From NCBI RefSeq assembly GCF_021869535.1, contig NW_026262666.1, positions 1,736,001 through 1,800,000 on the forward strand: DNA of 64,000 nucleotides, in the 5' to 3' direction. This stretch comes from Mytilus californianus (Eukaryota). Numbering within the stretch: position 1 is the first letter of the stretch; every line of letters starts with the position of its first letter. The translations under genes were made by a program, and so were the position numbers. Shown here piece after piece: positions 5,060 to 29,530 of the stretch. A model generated the notes under the pieces. It was given only the letters and a program-made list of their open reading frames with translations, had not been told where the DNA came from and did not search any database.

Positions 5060-6968
5060 ATTTATTTATTTAGAAACTACCCCTTTACAACGGGGGACAC
5101 TCATATGTCATTTTCAGAGCTAAAAATTGGTACATTATAAAATAAGACATCTTACATAAGAAAAATACACATTATGTACAATATTAAAATATGAACTAAA
5201 CTAAGAGTTACGTAAACATATTACATAAACAAAAAACATTTAAAGTTTAGGTTCCAAAACCAAAGATCTCTGAGTGTGCATTTCGCTCAACATTTTCTTA
5301 CTTAAACTGTCCAAAGTATTACTGATGTAAGGATCAATCTGATAAAAATAATCACCAATAAGTATTTGTATTTTATCGTAGGACGATAACTCTGTGAAGC
5401 AGAGGCCCGGGAAAGTAAAACTTAGATATTCATTTATATCAGAACACTCTAGAAGGCAATGTTCAATAGACTCGTCAGAATTACATAAACATATTTGGCA
5501 AGTGTGACTCTCGCTAAGATTCATCCTATACAAGACTTGGTTCACAGGTAAACAATTTGTACGTGTTAACAATTTTAGTCTTGCAGACTTAAAGTCCAGC
5601 AAGTTCGACAGATAGGGTTGCCTTCCTTGTGCAAAATTAAATTTGGAGAAAATATCTAGACTGCTTTTATCATTTATTTCTTGATATTCCCTTCTACGAA
5701 CAAACCTTCTAAGAAACTGTTTAAATATATTAGAGTTAACATTCGAGTTGTAAAAGTGATCCAGACCAACCATATTAAATAAATTTATCATATGTTGCGG
5801 ATAATTCCACCCCCTTTGAAACGTTAGGGACTTAAGTTCTTCAAATACAAGTCGACACAATGTACGTGTGCCAAGACCTTGAATCCTAGCAAAATAAGAC
5901 ACCCTTTGTCTATCAAGAAAAACGTTTATAGGCTCCCATCCCAAGTCTAGGAAAAGGGCAGCTTTTGGGATATTCATCTTAGTATTAAAAATCAGTTTCG
6001 CCGTTTTATATTGCCATGTTTCAAGTATTTGTTGACTTGAAGCAGATGACGGTAGCCATACGGCATATCCGTGTGCTAGAGACGGTCGGATGACCGAGTT
6101 CCAGAGAGCATCCCTAAAAGATATGCGATTAAAAGATCCGTGCATGCTCATTAAGTAGCTAAGTCATATAATTCAGTTTGCGCTCGAAAATATCTTTTAA
6201 GAAATGATTGATATGGTAAGCAAAGGTCAAAGAGCGGGTAAAATAAACTCCAAGATATTTATATTCATTAGTCTCGTCCAAATGCTCGTTTCCTAGGTAC
6301 CATTTCTTAGTTTTATCTCAGCGTTTGCCTACTATCATAATCTTAGATTTGTTTGGGTTAAACTTTAAATTCCACTTTGATGCAAATTTTGCTGTTATAT
6401 CTAGCAGACACTGCAGTTCCTTCTTTGACTTCCCGATAAGAACCATATCATCAGCAAACATCAAACAGTTCAAAATTTGTGAAGAGAGCTCGACGCCCAA
6501 ATTACTGGTTTCAAGCATACCTATGAGGTCATTCATTAAAACAGAAAAAAATGTTGGAGACAAAACACAGCCTTGTTTCAAGCCAAGTTCTTGGTCGAAG
6601 AAACCTGTTTCACTAGCATCAATCAAGACTTTATTTGATACATTGCTATAAAGAGATTTGAGCAATTTTCAGCACTTGCCTTGAATGCCATTTTTCCACA
6701 ATTATAGATAGAAAAGGCCATCTCGCCAGACTCTATCAAAAGCCTTGGACAGGTCTAGGAAAGCGAGAAACGTTTTATGTTTTTTTAGCTTTACGAATAG
6801 AACAAATACCTTGCAGTGTAAAAATATGGTCCTCGGTTCTTCTGTTTTTTCGAAATGCTCCCTGGACCTCGCCTAAAATATTATTTTCTTCCAAATGGGA
6901 CATTACAGATTCTTCCAAAATTTTTGCATATACTTTTTAAACATTAGAAGTAAGCGTGATACCTCTGT
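5060..6968 (-). mobile_element. 5'-truncated, degraded non-LTR retrotransposon (LINE) RT and C-terminal region
   Basis: RT motifs YRGITLTS, FLDLSKAFDRVW, LKQGCVLSP, LMFADD; C-terminal CQIC...HCLLEC; frameshifts near 6150-6320 and 6670-6800; (TAAA)n tail near 5060. Confidence 0.9.
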
Positions 6969-7865
6969 AAAGGAGATGTAGTATGATTAACAATGAGACA
7001 AATATCAACCAGAGTCAAAACTAATGACGTGCACTTAAGCAACTATAATGTGTCATCATAGGGCCTTCAACAATAAAAAAAAAGTATTTGAAAGTTGTGC
7101 AATTTGTTTAACAGAAACAATTAAAAATCTGACAACAACCGAGAAAATGTGTACTACACAGAAATTCAAACCTTAATCATACATATACAACTTTATAAAT
7201 CAGTGGTTTTTCAAACGCATAAATTCTGACAAATTCCAGGTCAAATCATATTGTGTTTTCATATGTAAGAAAACAAAATCCACAACTAAAATTTTGCCAA
7301 TCATTACGCAATATAAATAAAAAGAGGTGTGGGACGAGCTTCAAATTTACGTGAATGAAAAAACCAACCCAAGAATATGCTAAAAACGACAATAGTAATC
7401 GAATGTCAACAAGTTGTCCTATACCTTTGTTATATCGTTCGATGGTTTAGGTACTAGTAATTGGATTAGCTGACGGATCGGAGTACCATATGACTGCTCG
7501 GTTTGAGTTCAAATACGGTTTTGTGAATGATAAAATGGCTTTGCATGCATGAACTGCAATGTATGTAAGACGGTTCATCAAAAGTTTTTTGATTGGTTCC
7601 TCTGGCACTTTCGCGCCCTTTGCCGCCTTTAAAAAAACCTTATCAAAGATATCAGCTGGTCTATGACAATAATACTAAACGGACCCATATGATATTATAA
7701 TGACCTGAGGAACGTGGTGTTAATTAGAAAAAATATTAATCAATTGATTCATTCAAGACACCAGGTGATGACAATATATAGATCGCGTTGAAAGACGGGT
7801 TGTGATTTGAAGTAAATTGACATTATGTGACTTTTCTGCTCAAATGACGGATGATGGCAATTTAC

Positions 7866-8420: not shown

Positions 8421-9263
8421 ATCTAGTCTTTATGAAATAATCAGTATTTAGGTCTTCAGACAGTGATCATATTGATTAAAATAAACAATTTGAAAATATA
8501 CATACTTATATATTCTATTGCACTATTGTTGAGAATTACGACAATCAGTCATGATAGTTTAACTGCACTGTCATTTCTATAAATCAGTTTACACATTATT
8601 ACATATACATTTACACAACAATTTTATCAGAACAAACAATATGAGATACTGTTTATCAGGTTATTTTCACGTCGAGATTTGTTTGCGTTAAGGTCGTTGA
8701 AGGGACAAATACATCGTCGTCGTGTTCATTCTACGCCTTTTATAGTTTTGTTATATATATTTGAATGGGCAGTGCAATATTGCGCAGAGCTACTTTTGCG
8801 TAAAAATGTCTACTGCAAACGTAGCGTTTAATAGACATATGAACAAATGAGTAGATTCACGAAGCTTTAAAAGTGGCCTTGAGAATTGGATGTTTTTTTT
8901 AATCTGGCCTAAATACCAGAGATACAAAATATCTTCTGTAGTACATGTTGTGCCTGTATGAAGTAAGGCTATCTAGATCTTGTGTTTATCGTTGGTTTTT
9001 GTCTTTCTTGGTCTCTGGTGGATAAGTGTCTCATTTACAATCCTACCACATTATTTATTTTCTTGTTTGTTTTTCTTTTCGTCGTCTTTCTTTTTTGCGA
9101 TGGCGTTAGCACTCGCGTAACAACAATAGACGAAAACGACCACTACCAACCGACGCCTCTAAATAACAAGGAGATGTAGTATGATTGACAATGAGAAAAT
9201 ATCCAAAAGAGTCAAAATAATGGCATGCATGTAAGCAACTATAATGTGTCATCGTAGGGCCTT

Positions 9264-10510
9264 TGTGAACGTGGAATAGTTCGTTTTGGTTTGTTTGTTG
9301 GTATATGGCTATAATAGCTGGAATGAAAAACCAATTCTTTGTAAAATAATAGATCTTTATTAATTGCTGGTCAATGTTCAAGTGCATACATGATAAACAA
9401 TACATAATAAGTTCATACATATATAATTGAAATAACATTAATTATTTAAACTGAATGCATAATAATATAAAGATGGAACATATATATTCGCATTGTAAAA
9501 CAATAAAGATAAAATGGGGGAGCTAACTAGCTCAATTAAATTAATGTGCTGATGCCAAATAATGTCAACATGAGTGAGACAAGGGCCTCTTTTTGAATTT
9601 TGATAAGTGTTGCCATGGTAACCAAATAATTTACTTTAGAACTAAGTTAAATTAATGAAGTGTAAACAGAACATTATTAATTTAAACACAAGAGTATAAA
9701 ACATTATACTTATATACAACAATGAAATCTGAACAATAAAAATGTATATGGCTACAAGGAGAGAATTGCGCTTTATTTTCATTTCTAGTTCTGACTTTAA
9801 AACAACCATTTATACATGATTCGAATGCATACTTAAACTGTCTTAATTACTAAATCAATATACACAACTCTGGTTGTTACCTTTGAGCCTTCATAGTGAA
9901 TAAAATGCACATTCTTAATAATTTTGCATTTGACGCAGTGTTTATTTTATTCTTAAAAGTGGAGATAACTCTGTTAAATACAGCTTAATATCGCTCTGTT
10001 TTTCAACATAAAAAATGGAATGAAACGTACCATAACTACTTGCGCTTTATGATCAGATTCAAATTAACTACTAAATAACTCAATAAAAATACCGACGCTA
10101 AAGAATATTTACACGATAAAGCAAATGACTAAAATAAGTAAGTCTTTTCTTTCAAATACTTAAACATTATGAAATATCAAAATATGTGACAAAGTCGCGT
10201 TATTTAAACATTGCAATTATCTAATTATTAAAAAGAAGGATAAAAAATGCTAAATTCAATAATAGGAAACATAAAGACTTTGTCTCTAAAACATGACTAT
10301 TTACATTAGAAAATTCTGTAATTGTAAAAATACTTTTAACTTCAAATAAGCTGTTACGACTGCAACTATACCCTTTTTAGTTTCTAATATCTTAACATCT
10401 AGAGAATTATCATTTAAAATATCAATGCATAAAACATGAAAATATTCATTTAAAAATATCAACTTATAAAACTTAAAGTTACACTCACCTGGAATGAAAA
10501 ACCAATTCTT
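9264..10510 (-). repeat. Non-coding 3'-terminal extension beyond the shared LTR segment, absent from the 5' end
   Basis: Lies inside the TSD and ends in ...CGTTCACA; a 67-bp direct repeat at 9318-9384 and 10489-10555 includes the last 45 bp of the LTR. Confidence 0.8.
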
Positions 10511-11024
10511 TGGAAAATAATAGATCTTTATTAATTGCTGGTCAATGTTCAAGTGACCACAATTTCATAAAATACAAATTTTGTTTCATTCCCAGGTGAG
10601 GCCCAATTAGGTAAAATAATTATATACACAAAGGAAAATATCTCATAAACCCTGTCACTGGCCCCATGTCACCTAAGAGCTAAAATCTATGATAGCGTGG
10701 TCTTAATCCGGACATGCTAATCCAACATATAGTCAAAGGTTACATAATATTTGCTATCGCTAATAGATAATATAATAAACTCTAATTTATAGCTTTTGTA
10801 AATCTTTTGTAGAAAAATGACAATTTATAGCTATTTTATTTCTTTGTCTAATTCTGGTATTTTATATAATCTCTTTAAAAATTAACTTATAAATTCGGGT
10901 GACATGACGACAGTGAAATTCTTTTTATTTATAAAATAAATTAAAACTCATTTCTATTAAAACTATAGTAAAAATAAGTAAAAGATCTATAAGAAAAAGT
11001 GATGGTGCATTTTTCCTTATCACA
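10511..11024 (-). repeat. 3' LTR, 514-bp segment shared with the 5' LTR
   Basis: Identical to 19405-19918 except two positions by eye (g/t at 10513, t/c near 10715); begins TGTGATAAG on the minus strand; AATAAA at 10527-10532. Confidence 0.95.
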
Positions 11025-11040
11025 AATATCCCCGTCATTA
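11025..11040 (-). other. Polypurine-tract-like plus-strand primer site
   Basis: AATGACGGGGATATT immediately precedes the TG start of the 3' LTR on the minus strand. Confidence 0.6.
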
Positions 11041-11395: not shown

Positions 11396-13810
11396 TCAAC
11401 ATTTTTGCTTTAATGGATTGACTGTAAACGTGTCAGGTACCTTGATTTGTTGTTTTGTGTGAACATTTACTATGCTTAAGCCTGACATTTCAACATGTAG
11501 TTTTTTATAAAAAGTACCAGATATTCTCATGTTTGTTATGTTATTTGGTGTTGCAATATCCCAATCTGATGGACATAATGGTAAATTGACAACTGGTATT
11601 GTCAAGCATGTTAAACCATTGCTGATTTCAAGTATGATTTTAGTGTGATGTCTTGTGCATACTTGTTTATATAAATAATGCAATACTCCAACAAATGAGA
11701 TAATTGTGATTGCTGCCAACACAATTGATGGCCACTGATTTAACTGTGGTGATAATAATGAATCATAATTTTGAGTTGTTGATATAGGTGATTGCATGTA
11801 ATGAAATGTTGGTGGTGTTTGTGGTGTCACAAATGCAGCTGATGATGGAGCTTTTTGTAACAGTATAAGTGCTGTTGTCAAGGCACGAACTTTGTTAAAT
11901 AGTGCAATGCAAGCAATCGTCAAAAGTATTGATAACACAAGAGATATTAGCGAGATCATCTCATTTGTGTTTGGCCAAGAATCGTCGATATCAATTTCAC
12001 CATCAAGTAATGGTTCTGACAATGAGGTAAATATTTTTCTGTCTGCTTTTGCTGCTTTTGCTATTCTTTTCAGGCTTAAGTGTAAATTATTGTCTTGTGC
12101 AATGACTGAGTTAAATGTATGGTTATAAAAATGAAGGTTGGGAAGTGTAATGTCTGCTGGGTCTGTAAAAGTTGTGTCACCTAATATCGAATTATAAGTT
12201 TCTGATGAGAAAAAGTGTTGAATAAGTGCTAAATTTACTGGATGTACTATAGTCACTGTATTTGTACTGTTATCGCACAATCCTTTTTTTGCAGGTATAA
12301 ATAACGAATCTGTTTTTACAGAACAAAGACATGGAACATGTATAATACAAAAGGAACATCCTTTTTCAATTTTATGACCTGATGGACAGTCAAAAGCAAG
12401 TGTTTTGGTTTTGTATATAAGTAAACTTGTGTCAGTTATTTCTTTGACTGCTGGCTGTATGATATTTGTAAGGAATCGGAAATTGCAATTTGAATGTACG
12501 CTTTCTTTGTCATTGAACAGTAGTGCAAAGGAACAACTTGGTGAAACAGATGAAAGTAAAGGAAAAGTTTTTGTGCAGTACAGTGTATCTATTCCTGAAC
12601 ATGTTTTTACAAATTCATCTGATAATTCTGCATACTGTCTGTTATCAGATGTGATTACTAAGTACTGTGGGAGATCTAATAATTGAGTTGCGTGATTGCT
12701 GGTTGTATTTATAGGTACAGGGTATGAGTTTATTTTGTATAGAGTGAGTGGATTCACAAATGTAGTAATTGGAAATTTGATGCTAATGAATAAATTTTTG
12801 TGATGTCTAGTATATAAAATGTTAGCTTGTGAATAATAATATGATGGGTTCACATTATTTAAGTAAAAACCTTTGAATTTGTCATTTAAGATAGATTGAA
12901 TATGCTGAATTGTACGTTTGAGATTTTGTGGTGAAATTAAAAATGGTGATAATTTGCCTTTAACTAACTCATGGACAGCTATTTTGAGTTCTTCTAGATA
13001 CTTATTAATTTCAGCTGTTTCATTCATTTGTTTGAGTAAAAATTTTGACAATTTGATGCTTAGTTTCTCAAATTGTGAGATGAATTTTGCAGTTTCTTTA
13101 GTGATATTTTGAATACCTTCATAATTGTTTTTTATACCAACTATGATATTATCAAATCTCTTATTTGTTTTTGACATATATGATGATAACAATTTATCGT
13201 GATGTGTAATATCTTTTGCAAATTGATTATTTCTTCTGATTAAAATGTTTACATGTTTTGCTAGTCTATTTACATCCTCAGTAGTTGCTGTGCCAAATAA
13301 AGATTTGGAAATTGAACCAATAAAGTCAAATAGTCCACGCTTTAGTCTAGATTCTGTATTGGATTTGTCTTCAATATCAATATGTGGAATAAGTTTATGA
13401 ATAACATCGACTGTGTGATTCACATTTGATGATACTTGAGTTCTAATTGCAGTAAGTTGTGATAAGACTTGGTTTAAAATGTAACAATGTTGATGTGTAA
13501 TATCACATTGTTCAAAGTGATCATCAGTTTGTTTGCTAGGAAGGGGAATCTTGAAAGTGTGAAGCCAATTTTCACGACCCGAAAGTAAATTTGGTTGTCT
13601 CTCAAACACTACTCCATAATTGATACGCTGTATCTGGTGCACCTTGTCAGCTGACACATATATCATTATCCACAACCATATAAAAATCCTGGCAAGACTT
13701 ATAACTCCTATAGAAAACAAAGAAAAAGGAAATTGATAGAATGTGAAATGTTTGTTGGGTAAGAGGTTGCATGCCTCTTTTAGCACTAAGTAACATGAGC
13801 ATAGGCTCAT
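11396..13810 (-). CDS. env: Envelope glycoprotein, class I fusion protein of baculovirus-F/errantivirus-Env type; true start uncertain, probably spliced
   Basis: About 804 aa from ATG 13810; signal peptide ending VSA/DK; furin site RLKR (13337-13348) followed by fusion peptide GLFDFIGSISKSLFGTATTEDV; heptad region; Cys-rich ectodomain with many NxS/T; C-terminal TM segments. Confidence 0.9.
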   Translation of the reverse strand: MSLCSCYLVLKEACNLLPNKHFTFYQFPFSLFSIGVISLARIFIWLWIMIYVSADKVHQIQRINYGVVFERQPNLLSGRENWLHTFKIPLPSKQTDDHFEQCDITHQHCYILNQVLSQLTAIRTQVSSNVNHTVDVIHKLIPHIDIEDKSNTESRLKRGLFDFIGSISKSLFGTATTEDVNRLAKHVNILIRRNNQFAKDITHHDKLLSSYMSKTNKRFDNIIVGIKNNYEGIQNITKETAKFISQFEKLSIKLSKFLLKQMNETAEINKYLEELKIAVHELVKGKLSPFLISPQNLKRTIQHIQSILNDKFKGFYLNNVNPSYYYSQANILYTRHHKNLFISIKFPITTFVNPLTLYKINSYPVPINTTSNHATQLLDLPQYLVITSDNRQYAELSDEFVKTCSGIDTLYCTKTFPLLSSVSPSCSFALLFNDKESVHSNCNFRFLTNIIQPAVKEITDTSLLIYKTKTLAFDCPSGHKIEKGCSFCIIHVPCLCSVKTDSLFIPAKKGLCDNSTNTVTIVHPVNLALIQHFFSSETYNSILGDTTFTDPADITLPNLHFYNHTFNSVIAQDNNLHLSLKRIAKAAKADRKIFTSLSEPLLDGEIDIDDSWPNTNEMISLISLVLSILLTIACIALFNKVRALTTALILLQKAPSSAAFVTPQTPPTFHYMQSPISTTQNYDSLLSPQLNQWPSIVLAAITIISFVGVLHYLYKQVCTRHHTKIILEISNGLTCLTIPVVNLPLCPSDWDIATPNNITNMRISGTFYKKLHVEMSGLSIVNVHTKQQIKVPDTFTVNPLKQKC

Positions 13811-14034
13811 AATTTTTAACAAACATTACACAGAAAGCAAAGAAAGAATTTTATAGTAAGAGTGTTCAGTTATGCCAACATCCTCATATAATGTTTCACA
13901 GATAGATAGGTGACCAATGTATGAAGTTTTAGATATATATGTAAAATTGTAAAAACCACTACCGTAAAAGTTATATATATATATGTAATAATCTATCTCA
14001 TGAAAGTCAATTGTAAGAAAAATTTTCAAAATTG

Positions 14035-17000
14035 CTATACAAAACATGGATTCCTTTGTGGGCGTTTGCGTCTTCTCCCCTGTTGTGTTTTCGTAGCATG
14101 GAAATTATTGATAATGTCATCACTTAAATCTTTGGCAAGTTGCCATGTAAGTCCTCTGTAACCTTTCCACTTTATTAAATATTGTTTTTGACCGTCAATT
14201 GTCCTTGACCTAATAATTCTTTCTATTGGGTACTCCTGGTCATCATTTTGATCCTTTGGATCTGCATCATTGTCATCATCATCAACAATAGGTGCTTGTT
14301 GTGCCTCCTGTTGAGGTTGTACTTGTGGCTGAACTGGCATTGGTAAATCTGGACGAGGCACATCCATGGGAGGTGCGTTTAAATTTTGTCTGTGATCAGG
14401 TGGGTGGTATAGTTTTAGCCTGTTTGCATTGATCATACTTTTGAGTAATTTATGGTCGCTACATCTGCGCAATTTGTATGTGTAATTCGAACCTTTGTCA
14501 ACAATGTAGAATGGTCCATCTTGTTTCTTGTAAAGTTTGGAAGAATATCCAACTGGTACTTTTGGAGTAAATACTAAAACTTGGTCGTTTACTTCAAACT
14601 TTGGCAATTCTGTACGTTTGTCATAATTTGTTTTCTGCTTTTGTTGAGCATGGTTTAAGTTTTCTGTAGCTATTGCCTTAGCTATTTTCAAGTTGTCCAA
14701 TATATTATCAATATGTGTTTTCAGGTTTTTGTTAAGATCTTCCCTTGGGATAAGGTTGACATCAAAAGGAAGGTTCATGTCTTTGCTAAAAACAAGATAG
14801 AATGGAGAGTACTCTGAAGAAGCAGATGGAGTCATGCGAAAAGCCATTAGAATACCAGGCAGTAGTTCTGGCCAATTTGACTGTTGTTCATTAATGACAG
14901 TTCTAATGCATTGTATGATGGTTTTGTTGGTACGCTCAGCAATTGAATTTGTTTGAGGATGGTAAGAGCTTGTGAAGGAATGTTTGACATTAAAAATGTG
15001 GTTAACTGCTGCAACAAGCTTGCTCATGAATCCTTGACCACGATCTGTACAGATGGAAACTGGGCTTCCAAATCTTGTAAATATCTCCTTGTGTAATACA
15101 GAGGCAATTTCTGCTGCACTTTCTGACTTAACTGGAAAACATTCTACCCATTTACTGAAGGAATCGACTATGATCAAGATGAAGCGATGTCCTTCGCTTG
15201 TCTCTCTCTTAAAAGGACCAATAAAGTCCATGTGCCATCGAGCAAATGTATCTGTAATTGGCATTGGTGTCATTGGAACTCTTTTGGAATGTGGTGGATA
15301 TTTTGCTTTTTGACATGGTTCACAACCTCTAATGTATTCTGTAACTACTTGGTACATGCGTGGAAAATAGTACTTTTCTTGAATAGACTGGTATGTCCGA
15401 TCAAAACCAAAGTGTCCGTGATCATGGTATGCCTTCATTAGATCATTTCTAAGTGTACGTGGCAATGCAAGTTGTTTAATGAACCTTTTGATTTTTCTTA
15501 AACCTTTTTGTCTTGGTTGGTACTGATGATACAGGACATCATCTTGCATGATATATTGGCTTGCCTCTAGGACAACCTTTTGTGCTATTTTCTTGTCATC
15601 TGGTAGTGTGTTGTTTTTAACATATTCATATATGAGACTAAAATCTGGACATTCACTCTGAAGTTTGCCTATTTCTATGGGTATGATATCAGATGTTGTT
15701 AATTCTGCAACTAAAGGTGATTTGCTTTTAGGCTGATCAGAATAGACAAAAGTAACTTCAAGAAAAGGATTTTCAGATTGGTCAATAGTATGAATTGAAG
15801 GAATGACATCTTCAGGTTCAGAAATATCAGATTCTTTTGTGACTGGATATTCACGTCTAGAAAGACAATCAGCAACAACATTTGTTTTACCTTGTCTGTA
15901 TAAAATTTCCATGTCATAACCTTGTAACAAAACTGACCATCTGGCCAAGCGACCAGTAGATTGTTTGATGTTGTTCAGAAATTTTAGAGCATTGTGATCT
16001 GTATACACTTTAAAATGTTTGTATGCTAGGTAAACATGATATGTTTTGACACCTTCCAATATAGCTAGACATTCATGCTCACTAGCTGACCATTTCCTCT
16101 CTGCTTCCGTTAAACTTCGACCACCATAAGCTATAACTTTCTCTTGGCCTTCAGAATCTAATTGAGCAAGAAAATAACCAATAGCTGTGCCGCTGGCATC
16201 AGTGGTAAGAATAAAGTCTTTCGACATGTCAGGATAAGCAAGAATAGGAGATGAAATCAGAGTCTTTTTGAGTTTATCAAAAGCAACTTGACAATCCTCT
16301 GTCCATTCAAAAGGTACATTGTCCTTAGTCAGATTATGCAATGGACCTGCAATGTGGCTATACCCTTGAACAAATTTTCTGTAATAGTTACAGAGACCTA
16401 AGAAACTTCTGACCTGTTTTTCAGTTTTAGGCACAGGAAAAGATTCTACAGTTTCAATTTTAGATTTGTCAACTTCAACACCTTTCTTAGAAACTTTATG
16501 GCCTAGATAAATGACTTCTTTTCGTGCAAACTGACATTTGCTTGGTTTAAGTGTGAGATTTGCAGCTTTCAATCTGTCAAAAACAAGCTGAAGATGTTTT
16601 AAATGTTCTTCAAATGTTCTGCTAAAGACAAGTATGTCATCTACATAGACTAGAGCAATCTGGTAATTGAGACGATGAAGAACCTGAGTCAAAAGATGTT
16701 GAAAAGAAGATGGTGCTGCTGATAAACCAAAAGGAAGCCTTTTCCACTGATAAACTCCACTAGGAGTGACAAAAGCAGATTTATGAGCCGTGGCTGGGTC
16801 TAACTGACATTGCCAATATCCGGACAAAAGATCTAAAGTTGTGAATATCTGCGCTTGTGAGCGCCCTAAGGAGTCAAGAACATCCTCAATGCGAGGCAAA
16901 GGAAAAAACTTGGGACGTGACACCTTATTAAGGGAGCGAAAATCACAACAGAACCTTAGTTCTCCCGATTTCTTTTTGCACATGACTACAGGTGCAGCCC

Positions 17001-18105
17001 ATTCACTGGTGGACTCTTCTATGATACCGTGTTCAAGCATTTTGTCAATTTGTTTGTTCATTTCTTCTAGAACTGGTGGAGATTGTCTGTAAAACCTTTT
17101 TCGTATTGGTGGCGCATCACCAGTGTCAATTGTATGTTTGTATAGATTTGTATTTCCTAGTTCACTAAGATCTTTGGCAAAAACTCGTCTATTTTTAGAA
17201 AGAAATGCTTGGAGAATAGTTTTTTGATCTTCAGACAGATCTGAGTCACTAAAATCAAAGTCTAAGATGTCACACTGATCATCAGATTTAGAATTCTGAG
17301 TTTTCTTATCAACTTGAGTGTCTGTTAAAGAAATGATAGATTTAGAGTCAACTGCAGAAACTGAAGCAACAACAAAGTTAGCTGGCAAATGAATAGTTTT
17401 TTCTGTAGGATTCATCACTCTCATGAAAGAATTGCCAGTGTCATCTAGTTGAACAATGGACTTTGCCCCAGCTAATGATTGACTTGGTAATGTGTGCAAG
17501 GGTTCTAAAAGAGCAGTTTGGTTTCTTAAATTGGACACTTTGACTGGAATGTCAACTTGATGTAACCCTTTGATGTGAATGTGTCTCTTTGTGCGAGCTA
17601 ATCCATTGTTTAACTCTACAGAATGGACAAGTTTTTCATCAGTGTCTGGCTCTGGGATAAACAGAGTGTTAGAGGGACAATCAATGATTGCTCCATTTTC
17701 AGTTAGAAAATCAAATCCTAAAATCATACTTTGTTGCATTTTGGAAAAGACATGAAAACGATAGACAAAAGAAATATTTCCTATAGTAAAAGGCAAAAGG
17801 ATAAGTCCTAAAATGGGATGGTGTTCACCCCCAACACCTACAGCATCTTGAACTCTTGTTCGCTGAATTTGTTTAAGATCAAAGTTTAAAGATTTGAGTA
17901 AATTTACTGAGCAGCAGCTAATAGCTGCTCCTGTGTCAACCAAACTTTTTACGTTGTTACCTTTTATTGTAACGTGAACTGTATTGCCATTTAATTTTGA
18001 CAACTGTGCAATTTCTGGTAATTTTAAATTTTCATTTTTATGTGTTTCTTTTCTGTTTTTGAAATTTCTGTTTTGGTGTTGTCTCTCTTGCCTTTGTTTT
18101 GTGTG
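14035..18105 (-). CDS. pol: Pol polyprotein: protease, RT, RNase H, integrase, GPY/F, chromodomain
   Basis: DTGA protease, YVDD RT, TDASG RNase H, HDHGH..CEPC zinc finger, DDE core (WHMDFIG, TDRG, ERTN), GPFYI, C-terminal EYPIERII..YLIKWKGY..TWQ. Frame is open back to the gag stop with no Met before the protease active site. Confidence 0.97.
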   Translation of the reverse strand, partial: HTKQRQERQHQNRNFKNRKETHKNENLKLPEIAQLSKLNGNTVHVTIKGNNVKSLVDTGAAISCCSVNLLKSLNFDLKQIQRTRVQDAVGVGGEHHPILGLILLPFTIGNISFVYRFHVFSKMQQSMILGFDFLTENGAIIDCPSNTLFIPEPDTDEKLVHSVELNNGLARTKRHIHIKGLHQVDIPVKVSNLRNQTALLEPLHTLPSQSLAGAKSIVQLDDTGNSFMRVMNPTEKTIHLPANFVVASVSAVDSKSIISLTDTQVDKKTQNSKSDDQCDILDFDFSDSDLSEDQKTILQAFLSKNRRVFAKDLSELGNTNLYKHTIDTGDAPPIRKRFYRQSPPVLEEMNKQIDKMLEHGIIEESTSEWAAPVVMCKKKSGELRFCCDFRSLNKVSRPKFFPLPRIEDVLDSLGRSQAQIFTTLDLLSGYWQCQLDPATAHKSAFVTPSGVYQWKRLPFGLSAAPSSFQHLLTQVLHRLNYQIALVYVDDILVFSRTFEEHLKHLQLVFDRLKAANLTLKPSKCQFARKEVIYLGHKVSKKGVEVDKSKIETVESFPVPKTEKQVRSFLGLCNYYRKFVQGYSHIAGPLHNLTKDNVPFEWTEDCQVAFDKLKKTLISSPILAYPDMSKDFILTTDASGTAIGYFLAQLDSEGQEKVIAYGGRSLTEAERKWSASEHECLAILEGVKTYHVYLAYKHFKVYTDHNALKFLNNIKQSTGRLARWSVLLQGYDMEILYRQGKTNVVADCLSRREYPVTKESDISEPEDVIPSIHTIDQSENPFLEVTFVYSDQPKSKSPLVAELTTSDIIPIEIGKLQSECPDFSLIYEYVKNNTLPDDKKIAQKVVLEASQYIMQDDVLYHQYQPRQKGLRKIKRFIKQLALPRTLRNDLMKAYHDHGHFGFDRTYQSIQEKYYFPRMYQVVTEYIRGCEPCQKAKYPPHSKRVPMTPMPITDTFARWHMDFIGPFKRETSEGHRFILIIVDSFSKWVECFPVKSESAAEIASVLHKEIFTRFGSPVSICTDRGQGFMSKLVAAVNHIFNVKHSFTSSYHPQTNSIAERTNKTIIQCIRTVINEQQSNWPELLPGILMAFRMTPSASSEYSPFYLVFSKDMNLPFDVNLIPREDLNKNLKTHIDNILDNLKIAKAIATENLNHAQQKQKTNYDKRTELPKFEVNDQVLVFTPKVPVGYSSKLYKKQDGPFYIVDKGSNYTYKLRRCSDHKLLKSMINANRLKLYHPPDHRQNLNAPPMDVPRPDLPMPVQPQVQPQQEAQQAPIVDDDDNDADPKDQNDDQEYPIERIIRSRTIDGQKQYLIKWKGYRGLTWQLAKDLSDDIINNFHATKTQQGRRRKRPQRNPCFV

Positions 18106-19356
18106 TCAATAATCTACCCTATAATTAGATTGTCTTGGTTGCCAGTTTTGTGAATTAGATTGTTGTCTTGGTTGCCAGTTTTGTGAATTTGCCTTTCGCT
18201 CATCAAATTCTTTCTTATCACATACCTCTTTAAAATGACCAAACTTGTGACAATAAAAACATTCAACATTGTATGCTGGGCATTTTCTCCTATCAAATAC
18301 ATGTGACTTACCACAAAACTTGCATTTGGTCAGTGACTGCTGCCTTGATCCTCTATAATTTTGACTGTAATTTGGCTTGTTTTGATCATGATGAGGTACA
18401 CCCACTGCCATCACTTGTTCTTTAAAAACTGATCTAATACCCTCTACTAAAGAAGAACATAAATCATTAATTGAATGTACATTGTTTACACTTTCTACAT
18501 TTAATTTTTGAACATTTTGTGTAGTTATGTTTGTATTGTTCGTGTTAACATCACTAGCTTTACATTCTGCTACACTAGTTGCAAGGTAAATTGCTTCTCT
18601 TAATTCATTTATTGTTTTGGGATCTTTCCCTACCACAAACGGTTTGATATCTGGGTTAAGCCCATTTTTACATAAACCCACAATTGTCTGCTCACTAATG
18701 TTCTGTGCACCACTTGCTAGGTTTTGCACTCTAGTTAAGTACTGTATCCCGGTCTCATGCGGATGTTGTTTAAGGCGGTACAACTCATTGTTTGTGTTAT
18801 GGTGTTTAAATCTGTCCAGAAAAGCAGCTTTCAAATTTGTCAGATCATCACGTGTTTCTGTAGGTAAGGAATGATACCATGTTGAGGCTTGTCCCTCCAC
18901 ATGAAATGAAAATGCAGCTAAAGCTGCCTCATTCTGATAATTTTGTAGTTTAATGTAATTTTCAAACATGGTCCACCAAATGGCAGGAACCTGGCTTGTT
19001 TCATCATGAAAATGAGCTAAATTTATATGTGACATTACTCGTTTTGTATTATTTGTCAAACCTATTGGAATAATTTGCACTATCTGTTGTTCAGCTTCTG
19101 GTTCTATTTCTATTTCTTCTTCTGCTTGTTCTGTGTCTTGCAAATTTATCTGGTTATTTGCTACTGGTTCCTGTTCAGTTATGTTGACAATCTCTGTTTG
19201 ATCGTCACCTGGTTGTTGTTCGGTTATGTTTACCAGAATTTCCTCTAGATCTGTGGAGTATATGTCCTCTGCGACTTGTGCTTTGGCCCTTGTGTTATAA
19301 TTGGACGGTGTTGCCCCTGTCGTTGACTTGGCACCAGCTGTGTTTCTGTATGGCAT
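18106..19356 (-). CDS. gag: Gag (416 aa) with two C-terminal zinc knuckles
   Basis: Retrotransposon capsid-like region (WWTMFENY, ASTWYHSL, LKAAFLDRF, GLNPDIKPFV); CKFCGKSH..C and CFYCHKFGHFKEVC knuckles; ATG 48 nt downstream of the 5' LTR. Confidence 0.93.
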   Translation of the reverse strand: MPYRNTAGAKSTTGATPSNYNTRAKAQVAEDIYSTDLEEILVNITEQQPGDDQTEIVNITEQEPVANNQINLQDTEQAEEEIEIEPEAEQQIVQIIPIGLTNNTKRVMSHINLAHFHDETSQVPAIWWTMFENYIKLQNYQNEAALAAFSFHVEGQASTWYHSLPTETRDDLTNLKAAFLDRFKHHNTNNELYRLKQHPHETGIQYLTRVQNLASGAQNISEQTIVGLCKNGLNPDIKPFVVGKDPKTINELREAIYLATSVAECKASDVNTNNTNITTQNVQKLNVESVNNVHSINDLCSSLVEGIRSVFKEQVMAVGVPHHDQNKPNYSQNYRGSRQQSLTKCKFCGKSHVFDRRKCPAYNVECFYCHKFGHFKEVCDKKEFDERKANSQNWQPRQQSNSQNWQPRQSNYRVDY

Positions 19357-19391
19357 GTAGACAGTAGAGCGAGGTAACAGGAAAGAGTCAG

Positions 19392-19401
19392 TCCTCTACC
19401 A
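19392..19401 (-). other. Putative primer-binding site
   Basis: TGGTAGAGGA starts 3 nt after the 5' LTR end; the TGG start is typical of a PBS complementary to tRNA CCA. Confidence 0.6.
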
Positions 19402-19404
19402 ATT

Positions 19405-19918
19405 TGTAAAATAATAGATCTTTATTAATTGCTGGTCAATGTTCAAGTGACCACAATTTCATAAAATACAAATTTTGTTTCATTCCCAGGTGAGGCCCAA
19501 TTAGGTAAAATAATTATATACACAAAGGAAAATATCTCATAAACCCTGTCACTGGCCCCATGTCACCTAAGAGCTAAAATCTATGATAGCGTGGTCTTAA
19601 TCCGGACACGCTAATCCAACATATAGTCAAAGGTTACATAATATTTGCTATCGCTAATAGATAATATAATAAACTCTAATTTATAGCTTTTGTAAATCTT
19701 TTGTAGAAAAATGACAATTTATAGCTATTTTATTTCTTTGTCTAATTCTGGTATTTTATATAATCTCTTTAAAAATTAACTTATAAATTCGGGTGACATG
19801 ACGACAGTGAAATTCTTTTTATTTATAAAATAAATTAAAACTCATTTCTATTAAAACTATAGTAAAAATAAGTAAAAGATCTATAAGAAAAAGTGATGGT
19901 GCATTTTTCCTTATCACA
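19405..19918 (-). repeat. 5' LTR (514 bp)
   Basis: TG...CA (TGTGATAAG...TTTTACA on the minus strand); 512/514 identical to 10511-11024. Confidence 0.95.
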
Positions 19919-21719
19919 CCTTCAACAAGAAAAGTATTTATAAGTTATGCAATTTGTTTTAAAGTAACAATTAAAAATCTGATAACAACCGAGAAAATGT
20001 GTGCTACACAGAAATTCAAACCTTAATCATACATTTACAACTTTATAAATCAGTGGTTTTTAAAACGCATAAATTCCGACAAATTCCAGGTCAAATCATA
20101 TTGTGTTTTCATATGTAAGCAATCAAAATCCACAACTGAAATTTCGCCAATCATTACACAATATAAATAAAAAGAGGTGTGGGACGAGCTTCAAATTTAC
20201 GTGAATGAAAAAACCAACCTAAGAATATGCTAAAAACGACAGTAGTAATCGAATGTCAACAAGTTGTCTTATACCTCCGTTATATCATTCGATTCGTTCA
20301 TTAGTTAATGTAATTGGATTAGCTGACGTATCGCGGTACAATATGGCTGCTCTGTTAAAAAATACCACAAAGTTAACATATCAATAGTTTTGATATAACT
20401 AAAGATACAAAATATCTTTTGTAGTACATGTTGTGCCGGTATCAAGTAAGGCTATCTAGATCTTGTGTTTATCGTTAGTTTTTGTCTTTCTTGGTCTCTG
20501 GTGGATAAGTGTCTCATTGAAAATCCTACCACATTTAATATTGATTTTGTTATCAGTAAATTAAAAGCAAACTAAACATTATTGTTATAAACATATGCAC
20601 TTTCATGGATCCTGTATCTTGGCATTGCACAAAAGTCATGTTTTTCGCTGACTGTTTATGGCGTCTTTACACAAAATCCATGGGATGTTGGATGTGTACT
20701 GATTGATAAATTAGTCTTAGATACATGAATTGTTTTATTAGTTGTTATTGGCTTTGAACTAGCTGTCATTAAGTGCGAGTACACTCAGATCTGTACTTAG
20801 TGTCTTTTTGTTGTTTGGATGTACAAGATTCCACCCACGTCCAATCTGTGTTTTTCTTTTATGTACTTCTATCTATCCATCTGATGAGTTAAGCCTTTTT
20901 CAACTGATTTTTATAGTTCGTTGTTATGCTGTACTGTTAAATCACTGTCCCAGGTGAAAGGAAGGGTTGGGATCTCGCTAACATATTTAACTTCCGACAC
21001 ATTCTGTATGTATGTGCCTGTCCCAAGTCAGGAGCCTGTAATTCAGTATTTGTCGTTTGTTGCTGTGTTACATTTTTTTTGTACACTTATTAGGCCGTTA
21101 GTTTTCTCGTTTGAATTGTTTTACATTTATGATTTCGGGGCCTTTTATAGCTGACTATGCGGTATCGGCTTCGCTCATTGTTGAAGGTCGTACGGTGACC
21201 TATAGCTGTTGATTTCTGTGTCATTTGGTCTCTCGTGGAGAGTTGTCTCATTAGCAACCATACCACATCTTCCTTTTTTATATTCACAAAGAAAGATAAA
21301 CAGCAACGATCAACGCAATATACAGATAACATGACTTAATACAGGCACAAAATGTACTAAAGTTAAAACCAAGTTTACGTGTATACTTTTCGTTTCCTTG
21401 AATTCTTTATTTGTAGAATTTTATTAATTTAAAAAAATTAAGAACTGAATAAAGAAAAATAACAATTTTGTTTTATAAATTTGGTGCGTGTGTTTTTCAT
21501 TATTTATTTTTACCAGGAATGCTAAAACCAAAAACTTTGAAAAACAAGAATGTGTAAGGGTTCAAATACTTGAGGAGCTGAATATCTACATACATATAGT
21601 AACTTATTTATTTCGTTTTATTCAATTTCACATACGTATACTGGAACGTTATAATGAAATGTTAATAGAAACCAAAATGTTTTTCCTAGTACTTACTTCT
21701 TTTTTAAGTTTTATTTTCT

Positions 21720-22480
21720 TGTTTATCTAACTTTGTCTTTATTTTCTACTGTAAACTTGTTATTTCTACTAACACAACATCTATTTATCTTTCGAAATTT
21801 ATCACAGTTTGCTTTCGGGTTTGAATAATTACTTCTAGTTTGTCACTTATTTCGTTTTTATTCTTCCTAATCTCCTTTGCTTTTGTGGATTCCTTCACAC
21901 AGATACAGCTTTATCTATCGTAACAACGTGTTCAATTTTCTGTGGTGTACTGTAACACAATCGGCACAACATTGTTGTGAGAGACTTGCAGTATATTTCG
22001 ATAGTCTTATCTAGATGTTCATCGCAAGAAATAGAAGCAAACATATTTGGAGCATACATTTATATCTGTAATGACTACTAACTTGTGGTTCCGAGTACTT
22101 TTGAATCTTTCATGAATGACTTCACATGGTCCACTATACGCTTCGACACAAACAGTGCACCATGAAACTGCTTTGTGAGAGATGTTCTAATTGCTACAAG
22201 CATCGCAAACTTTCTTTGCTTTCTTCATAGCCCTCCTGTCAATCAAATGTTTTTAAAGTCAGTTTCTAGACCACACCTCAGGTTTCTCCGTACTGTATCC
22301 ACACGATACAATGCCTCCGCATACTGGGCACTCGAATCCCTCTAGTTTTTTTTTTCGCCTTTTACAGTTGAAACAAAAAAGACATGTATACAGGTCTCAC
22401 AGAGTGGATGCAGACACGGTACATAATTTGGCAGTTTACAAGTTCCAAAACAAATAGTCAAGGTTAATTAAGCAGCAAAT
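21720..22480 (-). pseudogene. Heavily decayed TRIM-like (RING/B-box/coiled-coil) copy
   Basis: Nucleotide similarity to 47780-48510; remnants such as VPCLHPLCETC, DRRAMKKA, CDEHLDKTIEIYCK, HVVTIDKAV broken by stops and frameshifts. Confidence 0.85.
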
Positions 22481-24371: not shown

Positions 24372-27300
24372 TACGGAAGCCGATAAGGGCCATTCAAAAA
24401 AAAAGAATTATGTCGTAACATGTCGTAATAACGACATCACTATGTCGTAATTTCGACATAGCATGTCGTTATAACGACATCGCTATGTCGTAATTTCGAC
24501 ATAACAAGTCGTAATTACGACATCACTATGTCGTAATTACGACATAGCTATGTCGTAATAACGACATCGCTATATATATAAAAGAATATGTATTATGATT
24601 GCCAAGAGACTAAATGACACAGAAATTAACAACTAAAGGTCATCATAATGCCTTCAATAATGAGAAAAGCCCCCGCATAGTCAGCTATAAAAGAGGGACG
24701 AAAGATACCAGAGGGAGAGTCCCCGAAATGACAGCTGTTTAACAATTTAATTCAAACGAGTGAAAATAACGGTTTTAATAATGGATAAACAAAGACCGAA
24801 ACACGAATATGTAACCCAGCAACAAATGACAACCACTGAATTACAGACTCCTGACCGCTATCTGATAATAACGACAACCTTATAGGTTAACTTTTCACTT
24901 TTTGATTCGATAGGAATTTCAAAATGGTCGCCAGTAAAGGCAAAGTTTGTAGCGTAAACAAATTCATCTTTTTTTTGAGAATATTGAACACTTTATGCAA
25001 TCAAGCTTAATTAAAGTTATTCACTAGCACCTCAGACTTGCACATACTAGAACTTTATTTATAATCAAGTCAAATGAGACCCAGTTGAATAGGGGAGCAA
25101 TTCAAGCTCCCTGGAGCCTCTAATTATGTTTGGCATTGCAGGTTATGAATAAGATGAATTTTAAGCTTTGTCCAATAAAGACTATGTTAAACTTTGGACT
25201 CATAGTGCTCAGACCCACGGATCTCTGTACCTTCATTTGTACACACTTGAATCTTAATGTACTACTGAGGCTTGATGCAAATTATAACTGCATTGCTATT
25301 GTTGGTTCTTAATGAGATTCTTCAAGCGTCCTCCCTATTGAAGCCCTATTAAAACTTTGCATCCCAAGTTCTTTTAACCACTGTTCCCCAGGGCAACTAT
25401 TCCTACAAACTTAGAGGGAGGATTGGGATCCCGCTAACATGTTTAACCCCGCCACATTCTTAATGTATGTGTCTGTCCCAAGTCTTTAATTTACATATTT
25501 GTTTTTCGTTTATTTTTGTACATAAAATAGGCCGCTAGTTTTTCTCGTTTGAATTGTATTACATTTGTCATTTCGGGGCCTTTTATAGCTGACTATGCGG
25601 TATGGGCTGTGATCATTGTTGAAGTCCGTACGGTGACCTATAACTGTTAATTTCTGTGTCATTTGGTTTCTTGTGGAGAGCTGCGTTTTTTAACAAACCA
25701 GCGTATCCCAAAGCCTTGATAACCTCTGTAGGCCCCAAATAAGACGAAAAAACATCAAAATTGGAGAGAAAACTGAAAATAAATGGTTTCTAACCTCAGG
25801 GATATTAACCCTTGGCATGCTGAATTGTTATCAGAAATTGTCTAAATTTCGAGTATTTGTAAAAATATGCAAATGATATGCAAATGAGCTGTACCCTGAT
25901 GCTGATGCATACTGATTGCATTAAATCTAAGATAGCCAAGGGTTAATATCCCTGAGGTTAGAAACCATTTTTTTTCAGTTTTCTCTCCAATTTTGATGTT
26001 TTTTTCGTCTTATTTGGGGCCTACAGAGGTTATCAAGGCCTTGGGATACGCTGGTTTGTTCAAAAACGCAACTCTCAACAAGAAACCAAATGACACAGAA
26101 ATTTACAATTAAAGGTCACCGTACGGCCTTCAACAATGATCACAGCCATATCGCATAGTCAGCTATAAAAGTCCCCGAAATGACAAATGTAATACAATTC
26201 AAACGAAAAAAACTAGCGGCCTATTTTATGTACAAAAATAAACGAAAAACAAATGTGTAAATTAAAGACTTGGGACATACACATACATAAAGAATGTGGC
26301 GGGGTTAAACATGTTAGCGGGATCCTAACCCTCCCCTTAAGTTTGTAGGAATAGTTGCCCTGGGGAACAGTGGTTAAAAGGACTTGGGGTACAAAGTTTT
26401 AATAGGTCTTCAATGGGGAGGACGCTTGAAGAATCTCATTAAGAACCAACAATAGCAATGCAGTAATAATTTGCATCAAGCCTCAGTAGTTACTGTACAT
26501 TAAGATTCAAGTGTGTACAAATGAAGGTACAGAGATCCGTGGGTCTGAGCACTATGAGTACAAAGTTTAACATAGTCTTTATTGGGAAAAGCTTAAATTC
26601 ATCTTATTCAGAACTTGCAATGGAAATGCAGGACTTCATAATTTACACAAATCTGTACATGTCAAACATAATTAGAGGCTCCAAGGAGTTTGAATTGCTC
26701 CCCTATTCAACTGGGTCTCATTTGACTTGATTATAAACAAAGTTCTAGTATGTGCAAGTCTGAGGTGCAAGTGAATAACTTTAATTAAGCTTGATTGCAT
26801 ATAGTGTTCATTATTCTAAAAAAAAAAGATGAATTTCTTTCCGCTACAAACTTTGCCTTTACTGACAACCATTTTGAAATGCCTATCGCATCAAAAAGTG
26901 AAAAGTTAAACTATAAGGTTGCCGTTATTATCACATAGCGGTCAGGAGTCTGTAATTCAGTGGAATTGTCATTTGTTGCTGTGTTACATATTCGTTTTTC
27001 GGTCTTTGTTTGTACATTATTAAAACCGTTATTTTCACTCGTTTGAATTAAATTATTAAACAGCTGTCATGTCGGGGACTCTCCCTCTGGTATCTTTCGT
27101 CCCTCTTTTATAGCTGACTATGCGGGGGCTTTTCTCATTATTGAGGGCATTATGATGACCTATAGTTGTTAATTTCTGTGTCATTAAGTCTCTTGGCAAT
27201 CATAATACATATTCTTATATATATATAGCGATGTCGTTATTACGACATAGCTATGTCGTTATTACGACATAGGGATGTCGTAATAACGACATGTTATGTC

Positions 27301-27415
27301 GAAATTACGACATAGCGATGTCGTTATAACGACATGTTATGTCGAAATTACGACATGCTATGTCGTAATTACGACATAATTATTTTTTTTTGAATGGCCC
27401 TTATCGGCTTCCGTA
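24372..27415. mobile_element. 3044-bp palindromic (foldback) non-autonomous DNA element, IS3EU-like termini
   Basis: Arms 24372-25816 and 25935-27415 are reverse complements with scattered substitutions and an indel; 118-bp spacer; ends TACGGAAGCC...GGCTTCCGTA; AAAATA directly repeated at 24366-24371 and 27416-27421. Confidence 0.8.
24409..24571. repeat. Subterminal minisatellite of self-palindromic units (ATGTCG-TAATWA-CGACAT); mirror copy at 27228-27378
   Basis: About 22-bp period, each unit is a small hairpin. Confidence 0.9.
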
Positions 27416-27630: not shown

Positions 27631-29530
27631 TTAATTAATTTCACATATGTATGCTTCACTTCTAGATCCATGAAATGTCACAAGAAACTTGTTAGTATTT
27701 TGTTTAAAACGCATTACCCATGGCCTTTCAGTCATATCTTCGTCTATGTCTGATAAAGCAATGGTACGGGCGAGTTGTCCGTCAGGTGTCACCTGATGGA
27801 TGTTTTTAGCATAATGTTCTACTATGTATATGTTGCCGTCGCGATCAATATTCTGGTGAAACGGTGAGCTCAAGTTACTCTTGCAGTCAAAATCTGTTCC
27901 GACAAATGATTCAAATCTTATTGAATGTGTATTCCTAAAAATGTTCTTATTTTCCCTATGACTACCTACAAATGTCGTGTGGTACTCCTCTTATTTAGCA
28001 CCATATTCAGTGTTGGACAAGGAAATGATACTACTATGTGCAATGATTTCTTCATGAATGAACATGCACATTCCGAACATTCCAACATTTATATTGACTG
28101 TTTTGATTGTTATCAAAGATTTAACGTTAATTATAAAAGTCTTTCCATAAGAACGGCATTGATAAATGGACACGGCTACTGTATGATCATTCACCTTAAT
28201 AATATCGGTTGGACGTTCATTAATTTGAAATTCTAATGTGTCTATTTGTTTTCCAGTATTATCGTGGTAGGCTATTCTGTTTTCATTGTACTCCGTTATG
28301 ATGATGTCGTCTTTAAAGAATATGCCACTGGTGTAAGCACCTCTAACATCAATCGTAAAAATCACGTGTATCTTCCCTAAAAGGGAGGGTTTGTTTTCTT
28401 TCAAATGCAAGCGACCAAAGCACATAGTGTCTGAAATGATATTCATTGTTTCGAACTTTATTGATATGTCTCTTATACCTTGTAAAACTGTGGACAAGTC
28501 ATTTTTAAAGTGTGGCATTTTACTTGAAATATCCTCCATTTTGACCAGGCAATGAATTTCAGAACCTTGGGACAAACAGGCCCTGAAGATATACTTCCAA
28601 TAATCAAAGGCACTCTTCAAGGCCACTAATTCACTAATCTCTTCATTCAGTCTTAGAATATTAGTTTTTCTTACACTTTTTACTTCTTCTTTGATTTTCA
28701 GTTCAAGTTCATCTAAACGGTCATTCAATGTTTGTCGCATGTTACCGATTTCTGTCAAAACAACATCTATATCTTTTTCGAAATTTGTTGTACTTTGTTT
28801 CCTATTGTCAATAATTACTTCCAACTTGTTACTTGTTTCTTTTAATTCCATCATTAGTTCCTGTGCTTTTATAGATTTTTTTTATACCAGTTACAGCTTT
28901 ATCTATGGTAACCAAGTGTTCACATTTTCTATGATGTACAGTAGCACAAACGGTACAACATGGTTTGGAGTGATCTTTGCAGTATGTTTCGATTGTCTTG
29001 TCTGGATGTTCATCGCAAGCAACAAATCCAAAGACATTTCCAATAAGCGTATCTTCCGTTATATCTTGAATCAAAACTATCTTGTGATTTCTCGCCATTT
29101 TATATTTTGTATGATTGACTTCACAAGAATCGCAATAGGCCTCTTCACAAATCGTGCACCATGAGATTGCTTTTTTGGAAATGTTTTCACTGCTACAAAC
29201 ATCACAAAATTTCTCATCCTGTTTCATTGTTCTCCTGTCAATCAATGAATTAATAAAATGATTTGCAGGCAAAGTTTTTACCCATGTATCAGGTTTTGCG
29301 ATGATGTCTCCAACCAGAACAAGGCGACTACATAATGGGCACTTGAATCCTTCTGGTTTTTCTTCCTTTACTGTTGAAACAACATATGTACTTAAACAGC
29401 TCTCACAAAACGTGTGTAGGCACGGTAAAGTCTTTGACTGTTTAAATGTTTCAAGGCAAATAGTACACGTCAATAAATCGGTTAAATCTTCTTTTAACGT
29501 TTCTTCCTTTACGTTAGCTAAAGTCGCCAT
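27631..29530 (-). pseudogene. TRIM-like gene copy with one frameshift and one premature stop
   Basis: ORFs 28829-29530, 27991-28854 and 27631-27873 align collinearly with the intact 642-aa paralog; +1 in a T8 run at 28876-28883; in-frame TAA at 27991-27993. Confidence 0.92.

Follow-up and report, generated by a model that had tools for sequence, protein, structure and literature searches.

A shortened 5′ LTR and a probably renewable intron-like LTR segment in a mussel Ty3/gypsy element

Introduction

Reverse transcription yields two identical LTRs. An element within a 64,000-nucleotide stretch of the Mytilus californianus genome (contig NW_026262666.1, positions 1,736,001 to 1,800,000; hereafter the window) has LTRs of two lengths, 514 bp at its 5′ end and 1761 bp at its 3′ end. 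The locus raises the questions of whether this asymmetry belongs to one copy or to a family, and of what the longer LTR contains. The asymmetry itself is real, ordinary, and minor. The fuller reading, which we regard as probable, is that the short 5′ LTR is a one-off and that the 1761-bp LTR is the normal one, with an intron-like segment that is rebuilt in each replication cycle.

Results and discussion

Organization of the element

The element lies on the minus strand, to which the coordinates of its parts refer, and begins with TGTGA at 19918 and ends with TCACA at 9264. It is flanked on both sides by the target site duplication (TSD) CCTT (plus strand, 19919–19922 on the 5′ side and 9260–9263 on the 3′ side). 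The insertion target is a host repeat, of which an uninterrupted paralogue at 6970–7503 can be aligned with each flank, the two alignments overlapping by 4 bp, and has a single CCTT (7064–7067). The original prediction, made from the sequence of the window, had placed unequal LTRs inside one TSD, and its coordinates hold. By comparison with the 3′ LTR and with genomic copies, the truncated 5′ LTR (19405–19918) consists of a segment A and the first 45 bp of a repeat. It ends in TTTTACA at 19405, followed by AAT and by a primer-binding site (PBS) starting with TGG at 19401 (PBS-like TGGTAGAGGACT, 19390–19401; the identical sequence follows the full LTR in copy L010). The 3′ LTR (9264–11024, TGTGA to TCACA) exceeds the 5′ LTR by 1247 bp and is equal in length to solo LTRs and to the LTRs of other proviruses that have TSDs of their own. 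A purine tract precedes its TGTGA at 11024 (polypurine-tract-like GACGGGGA, 11029–11036, 4 nt upstream), and has the same context in L003, L004, and L015. The 514 bp common to the two LTRs differ at two positions (19609/10715 and 19407/10513). Public contigs from DNA and RNA runs have the family base at 19609 and 10513, and hence each LTR of the window copy carries one private change, which indicates that this copy is very young.

Between the LTRs are a gag frame (18106–19395, first ATG at 19356; Retrotrans_gag, E=8.2e-12), a pol frame (14035–18105) with protease, RT, RNase H, integrase, and a chromodomain (PF00385, E=5.6e-7), and an env-like frame of F type (11396–13825; Baculo_F, E=3.9e-19). 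The element has the gag, the pol order PR-RT-RH-IN, the F-type env, the TG..CA ends, the TSD, the polypurine tract, and the PBS of a Ty3/gypsy errantivirus; two identical LTRs are absent from the window copy and present in two other proviruses of the family. Chromodomain-bearing Ty3/gypsy errantiviruses with F-type env have been described from Cnidaria, Mollusca, and Annelida, with gag, pol plus chromodomain, F-type env, LTRs, and PBS as in the window element (PMC13524379). The element fits the working definition used there and resembles the chromodomain clade in its domains. Bivalve errantivirus LTRs are ~370–1850 bp in length (15 mollusc rows of supplementary file 1, PMC13524379). Unlike what we report here for the window family, neither inner LTR structure nor LTR introns are described in the accessible text of that paper.

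A strong splice-acceptor-like site within the env frame ends at 13708 and precedes a signal-peptide-like stretch of env. A CAG|GTGAC word occurs at 19208, 148 nt past the gag ATG, and is in phase with this acceptor by hand count. Judged from these sites, env may be produced by a splice from the start of gag to env.

Origin of the shortened 5′ LTR

A genome search with the long LTR gave 47 matches, 30 of which were retrieved. Among these 30 were solo LTRs of the long form, flanked by CTTA, CCAT, and ATTG as TSDs. One provirus (TSD TATT) has a long LTR at each end, its 5′ LTR ending GTTCACA-AATTGGTAGAGG, and another, with TSD CAGG, has a 589-bp LTR at each end. The expectation that the family LTR is long is thus borne out by the solo LTRs and by the provirus long at both ends, and the GTTCACA-AATTGGTAGAGG junction predicted for a symmetric long LTR was found (L010, L011, and L003). 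The long 5′ LTR of L010/L011 (C154:42623016-42729507) is interrupted at base 655–662 by ~105 kb of other DNA. In a fourth provirus (TSD GAAT), the 5′ LTR is broken at base 140 and joined inside gag, with breakpoints unlike those of the window copy. An unrelated insertion at 9264–10510, with CCTT and TCACA there by chance, was rejected, as this stretch belongs to the family LTR elsewhere and the paralogue confirms the TSD.

The 514-bp junction has one match in the 1.65 Gb genome at up to one mismatch, namely the window itself, and is accounted for by 5 bp of microhomology, ACAAA (19403–19407), between repeat positions 43–47 and the U5/PBS border. This agrees with the microhomology-driven accident that had been proposed. 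The full U5 precedes the PBS in two of three copies of the window family, and at 4/4 and 9/9 PBS matches in two other families. Among the matches listed from four DNA runs (X1, X3, X6, and X8), the PBS is joined to the terminal LTR segment Z only. For this junction, which was chosen post hoc for the statistics, the right breakpoint is the exact LTR/PBS border, touched by 13 of the 3060 possible 5-mer pairs at natural loci; the left breakpoint, 15 nt past AATAAA, is unremarkable (one of the 13 border-touching pairs and one of five ACAAA words).

The asymmetry is likely a copying accident of one copy during reverse transcription and not a family trait, and since reverse transcription makes both LTRs alike, it would not be inherited. 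In the window copy, the minus-strand end at the U5/PBS border would have paired through ACAAA with repeat positions 43–47 during the second strand transfer. In HIV-1, asymmetric LTRs occur in 26 of 88 proviruses and have been ascribed to reverse transcription; as in the window copy, one LTR is intact and the other deleted (PMC9278108). The HIV-1 deletions are mostly 3′, with two 5′ cases of <100 nt, whereas the window copy has lost 1247 bp from its 5′ LTR, with a break at the PBS border (PMC9278108).

The same LTR biology would also hold if the insertion had started with a full 5′ LTR and the host germ line had later lost the 1247 bp through microhomology-mediated repair. Five bp of microhomology are compatible with end joining, and other copies have indels at unrelated breakpoints, including the second provirus with its 5′ LTR cut at base 140. 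However, a germ-line deletion does not readily explain a right breakpoint placed exactly on the LTR/PBS border, where so few 5-mer pairs fall, nor does it sit well with so young a copy (2 mismatches in 514 bp), and we consider it unlikely. A faulty second strand transfer is the origin that we favor with some confidence over repair after insertion.

As would be expected if the junction were an assembly error, contigs bridging the 514-bp junction or the flank/LTR joint were not seen among the matches listed from the four DNA runs; contigs, however, drop rare forms. The joint with the flank being absent as well, these runs may come from animals without the insertion, and such contigs show presence, not absence; with an intact TSD and a private base in the 5′ LTR, an assembly error is very improbable. 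Shortened 5′ LTRs in two of the four family proviruses having both ends could suggest a fixed, novel replication architecture, an alternative in the original prediction that is contradicted by the unique junction, the differing breakpoints of the second asymmetric copy, symmetric proviruses in the window family and related families, and full U5 at 13/13 PBS matches of two other families, and that we dismiss almost entirely. Splicing was rejected as the origin of the junction because the missing stretch has neither a GT start nor an AG end, and a short-form relative as template for the window copy is unneeded, given that its two LTRs differ at 2 places only.

Structure of the long LTR

The long LTR consists, in order, of segment A (469 bp), repeat 1 (67 bp), a unique stretch of 1104 bp, repeat 2 (67 bp), and segment Z (54 bp). 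Segment A (10556–11024), the putative U3, is common to the long, short, and 514-bp LTRs. Repeat 1 (10489–10555), a candidate first exon and R, starts with TCACTT, which we take to be an initiator-like word. It has AATAAA at its positions 24–29 (10532–10527) and ends in a pyrimidine tract and CAG (TTTTTCATTCCAG), with GTGAGT directly following. Repeat 2 (9318–9384) is a direct repeat of repeat 1 with one mismatch (10555–10489 against 9384–9318), with the same pyrimidine tract and CAG and with AATAAA at 9361–9356. It is preceded by G, ends at the acceptor CAG, and is the presumed landing site of the first strand transfer. Segment Z (9264–9317), probably U5 and a second exon, ends in TCACA and is followed by the PBS in L010 and L014.

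Relative to the long LTR, the 589-bp LTR lacks exactly 1171 bp, from GT to AG. This intron-like segment (9318–10488, GTGAGT to TTTTTCATTCCAG) comprises the unique stretch and repeat 2. It has candidate splice sites of U2 type in the window family, with a CAG|GTGAGT donor and a pyrimidine tract and AG at the acceptor. The unique part of the segment contains 32 ATGs, while the repeat and Z contain none; five donor-like words occur in its 1104 bp.

Co-variation of the two repeats

Variants that are absent from the window copy and common to both repeats occur in 6 of 11 family LTRs, and 3 of 11 are near-identical to the window. Some of these variants are private to a locus and present in both repeats (position 11 at C132:64.3 and position 9 at C1), and in a second family both copies at C103 have AATACA in place of AATAAA. 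In 8 of 11 family LTRs, repeat 2 resembles the repeat 1 of the same LTR more than it does the others on average. The repeats differ at nine places and have no common variants in two of the 11, C94 and C171, which have the same flanks; in one further family LTR, repeat 2 does not resemble its own repeat 1 more than it does others. The bases before repeat 1 are GGT in 11/11, and those before repeat 2 are ATA (7), ATG (2), AAG (1), and AGT (1).

L008, L009, and L012/L018 (C94, C171, and C147) are old copies with common flanks and a common LTR deletion, in which repeat 1 has no AATAAA. They are likely one insertion duplicated along with its surroundings.

The nearest relative of eight short copies is a long copy in four cases and another short copy in three, with one tie. 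Short forms may, on this sequence comparison, copy themselves, which would leave the persistence of the long forms unaccounted for.

Layout across gypsy lineages

A search with RT gave 150 matches, of which 40 were retrieved, with preference for long open frames. Together with the window element these make up ~26 gypsy lineages by reading of an RT tree of elements from this one genome (C99:68.3, a short match, was left out). The inner repeat layout is present in 12 of the 28 LTRs examined, representing 11 of the 26 sampled lineages; 15 LTRs lack a repeat of 20 bp and one has an unrelated 20-mer. In these 12 LTRs the repeat is 29–68 bp in length, the two copies are spaced by 283–1443 bp, and they differ by 0–1 mismatch. 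Env is present in some lineages with the layout and absent from others, and these lineages lie at scattered places in the tree. At C132:18.7, the search for an LTR pair found none.

The sequence of the repeat differs between lineages, yet AG|GT closes the first copy in 11/11, as compared with the five donor-like words of the 1104-bp unique stretch in the window element. The donors are GTGAG (4 lineages), GTAAG (4), GTTAG (2), and GTATG (1), and the acceptors end in AAG in three lineages. AATAAA occurs at repeat positions 18–25 in eight of the 11 lineages, and neither AATAAA nor ATTAAA was found within the repeat in the other three. Copy 1 is preceded by a pyrimidine in 11/11 lineages; before copy 2, a pyrimidine is absent in 10/11. 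In 7/11 lineages copy 2 follows directly on a G (binomial p 0.008 at p=0.25, with the lineages being kin and the counts non-independent). G also precedes copy 2 in six of seven long 5′ LTRs of a third family, and in only 3 of 11 LTRs of the window family. Symmetric short proviruses exist in three families, which points to loss of the intron-like segment at the RNA or reverse transcription step.

A few further loci are of note. L154 (C132:16.8 Mb) has a 793-bp LTR whose end consists of an initiator-like start, AATAAA, and TTTTAG, with no further copy; this LTR could be a short form belonging to a twelfth lineage, one sister to C1:58.8. At L076 (C154:106.95 Mb), three partial copies of an LTR start, one stretch of which is inverted, precede the short-form 5′ LTR of a sister family. 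The PBSs of the 11 lineages have only their start in common (TGG(T/C)(G/A)GA(G/C)-like) and diverge beyond ~8 nt.

An antisense arm in U3

U3 of the window family has an antisense arm (10584–10600) that can form 15 pairs with the candidate splice donor and the repeat 1 end next to it (−22.8 kcal/mol). The duplex of this arm, at −46, is below those of all 300 shuffles. Two further lineages have an arm at −51 and −53 (p 0.023 and 0.003) and a fourth is borderline at −54 (p 0.063); in the other 7 of 11 lineages, comparison of complementarity with shuffles detected no arm. The distal pairs of the arm track each lineage's own repeat end. Within the window family, the arm pattern is absent from 6 of 17 rows, and the four of these six that were examined have a weaker arm (−14.5 to −17.9 kcal/mol).

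In all four lineages with an arm, including U3 increases the predicted cost of making the donor accessible. In the window family, predicted masking rises from 7.1 kcal/mol to 15.9 when 70 nt of U3 are included and is back at 7.1 with 150 nt. Pairing probability does not separate the 5′ from the 3′ context (0.76 vs 0.88). The arm is predicted by these folding models to hide the donor in transcripts extending through U3 and in no others. In foamy virus, a splice donor in the LTR controls the choice of poly(A) site, and an RNA fold hides this donor at the 3′ LTR (PMC3694450). U3-dependent masking of the foamy type is a predicted fold in 3–4 of the 11 lineages and, in the window family, depends on the size of the folding window. 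The poly(A) signal of foamy virus lies downstream of the donor, whereas AATAAA of the window LTR precedes the donor and occurs a second time within the intron-like segment; the accessible text on foamy virus describes neither an LTR-internal intron nor a duplicated R (PMC3694450).

Proposed renewal of the intron-like segment

Introns are expected to disappear from anything copied through spliced RNA, and the layout suggests how an LTR element could retain one by simple means. We infer that repeat 1 is where transcription begins. Splicing in the 5′ LTR would take out the segment, and with it the second poly(A) signal and the 32 ATGs that lie upstream, leaving a spliced leader of repeat 1, Z, and the PBS. 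In the 3′ LTR, the donor would go unused (with the U3 arm predicted to mask it in some lineages) and the RNA would be polyadenylated in repeat 2. Minus-strand strong-stop DNA, made on Z and repeat 1, would then anneal to repeat 2, and following this transfer both new LTRs would regain the intron, with repeat 1 overwriting repeat 2. Annealing to repeat 1 instead, or poly(A) addition at repeat 1, would give the short form. One such renewal route would explain the borders of the repeat (start site and donor), the tracking of repeat 1 by repeat 2, the G at the landing site, and the short by-product. As judged by comparison of copies and lineages, this LTR design is well supported.

The G before copy 2 is what copying of the cap by RT would leave. 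The cap is copied by HIV-1 RT in ~5% of cycles, leaving a G directly upstream of the start site (PMC12172438). In HIV-1 this G is at the U3/R border, whereas here it is before repeat 2, inside the LTR, and not before repeat 1 (PMC12172438).

RNA contigs from 4/4 runs cover A, repeat 1, and the segment, and extend into repeat 2; the runs holding the LTR include two labelled mollusc metagenome. Contigs reaching into repeat 2 are compatible with intron retention at the 3′ end. The RNA contigs revealed neither a spliced read nor a start site or poly(A) site, and a spliced joint in them would have the same sequence as the repeat 2/Z DNA. The depth of the segment relative to env is inconsistent across runs, and contigs are unsuited to ranking the two. 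Self-priming, either of the Tf1 type or by a splice-junction primer, was rejected, as the LTR has no complement of at least 7 nt to the PBS, the repeat/Z joint included.

The LTR might instead do without splicing, as a tandem of two promoter/R units whose repeats are homogenized by strong-stop template switching or gene conversion, with short forms being direct-repeat deletions made by RT. Deletion between direct repeats by RT is well known, and both the presence of the segment in RNA contigs of all four runs and the lack among them of a spliced read, indistinguishable there from repeat 2/Z DNA, suit such a tandem. Unaccounted for, however, would be the end of the repeat at AG|GT in 11/11 lineages with different repeats and the donor-complementary U3 arm in 3–4 lineages. 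Copy 2 would also be a poor second initiator, having no pyrimidine before its start in 10/11 lineages. We find a tandem of this kind quite improbable. Returning to renewal through a spliced RNA, we lean towards the view that replication of this kind is used by a broad set of animal gypsy elements, env-bearing or not, whose LTRs keep a kilobase-long spliceosomal intron. The duplicated first exon would serve as both 3′ splice site and landing pad for the first transfer, with R in two places, and the intron would be selected since intron-less copies, made in every cycle, would do worse.

Introns close to a start site or within LTRs have been described in other retroelements. Penelope, a non-LTR-type retroelement, keeps a 75-bp intron 46 bp downstream of its start site that aids expression; the accessible text mentions no duplicated first exon (PMC2377424). 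In maize, introns within LTRs have a mean length of 1303 bp and were claimed as the first evidence of their kind (bioRxiv 10.64898/2026.05.08.723830). The LTR-contained transcripts of maize are treated as non-coding RNAs, and the available part of that preprint gives neither a repeat nor a route for survival of the intron (bioRxiv 10.64898/2026.05.08.723830). We found no description of a duplicated first exon renewing an LTR intron in the mainly open-access literature searched. The layout also suggests how one sequence could be a promoter, with a spliced leader, at the 5′ end of the element and a terminator at its 3′ end. The RNA ends predicted from the layout should be readable in ordinary tissue samples. 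For annotation, two LTR lengths in one family can split families and mislead the assignment of LTRs.

Other features of the window

A 3-kb near-perfect inverted repeat at 24400–27400, with arms 92–99% alike and 21–22-bp tandem units at its ends, resembles a foldback element. A RING/B-box (TRIM-like) gene of 653 amino acids is located at 46639–48600, with related fragments at 21711–22353 and 28381–29364. The 307-amino acid frame at 5240–6163 has a zf-RVT domain and is likely a piece of a non-LTR retrotransposon. A tandem array with a unit of ~499 bp occupies 60999–62133.
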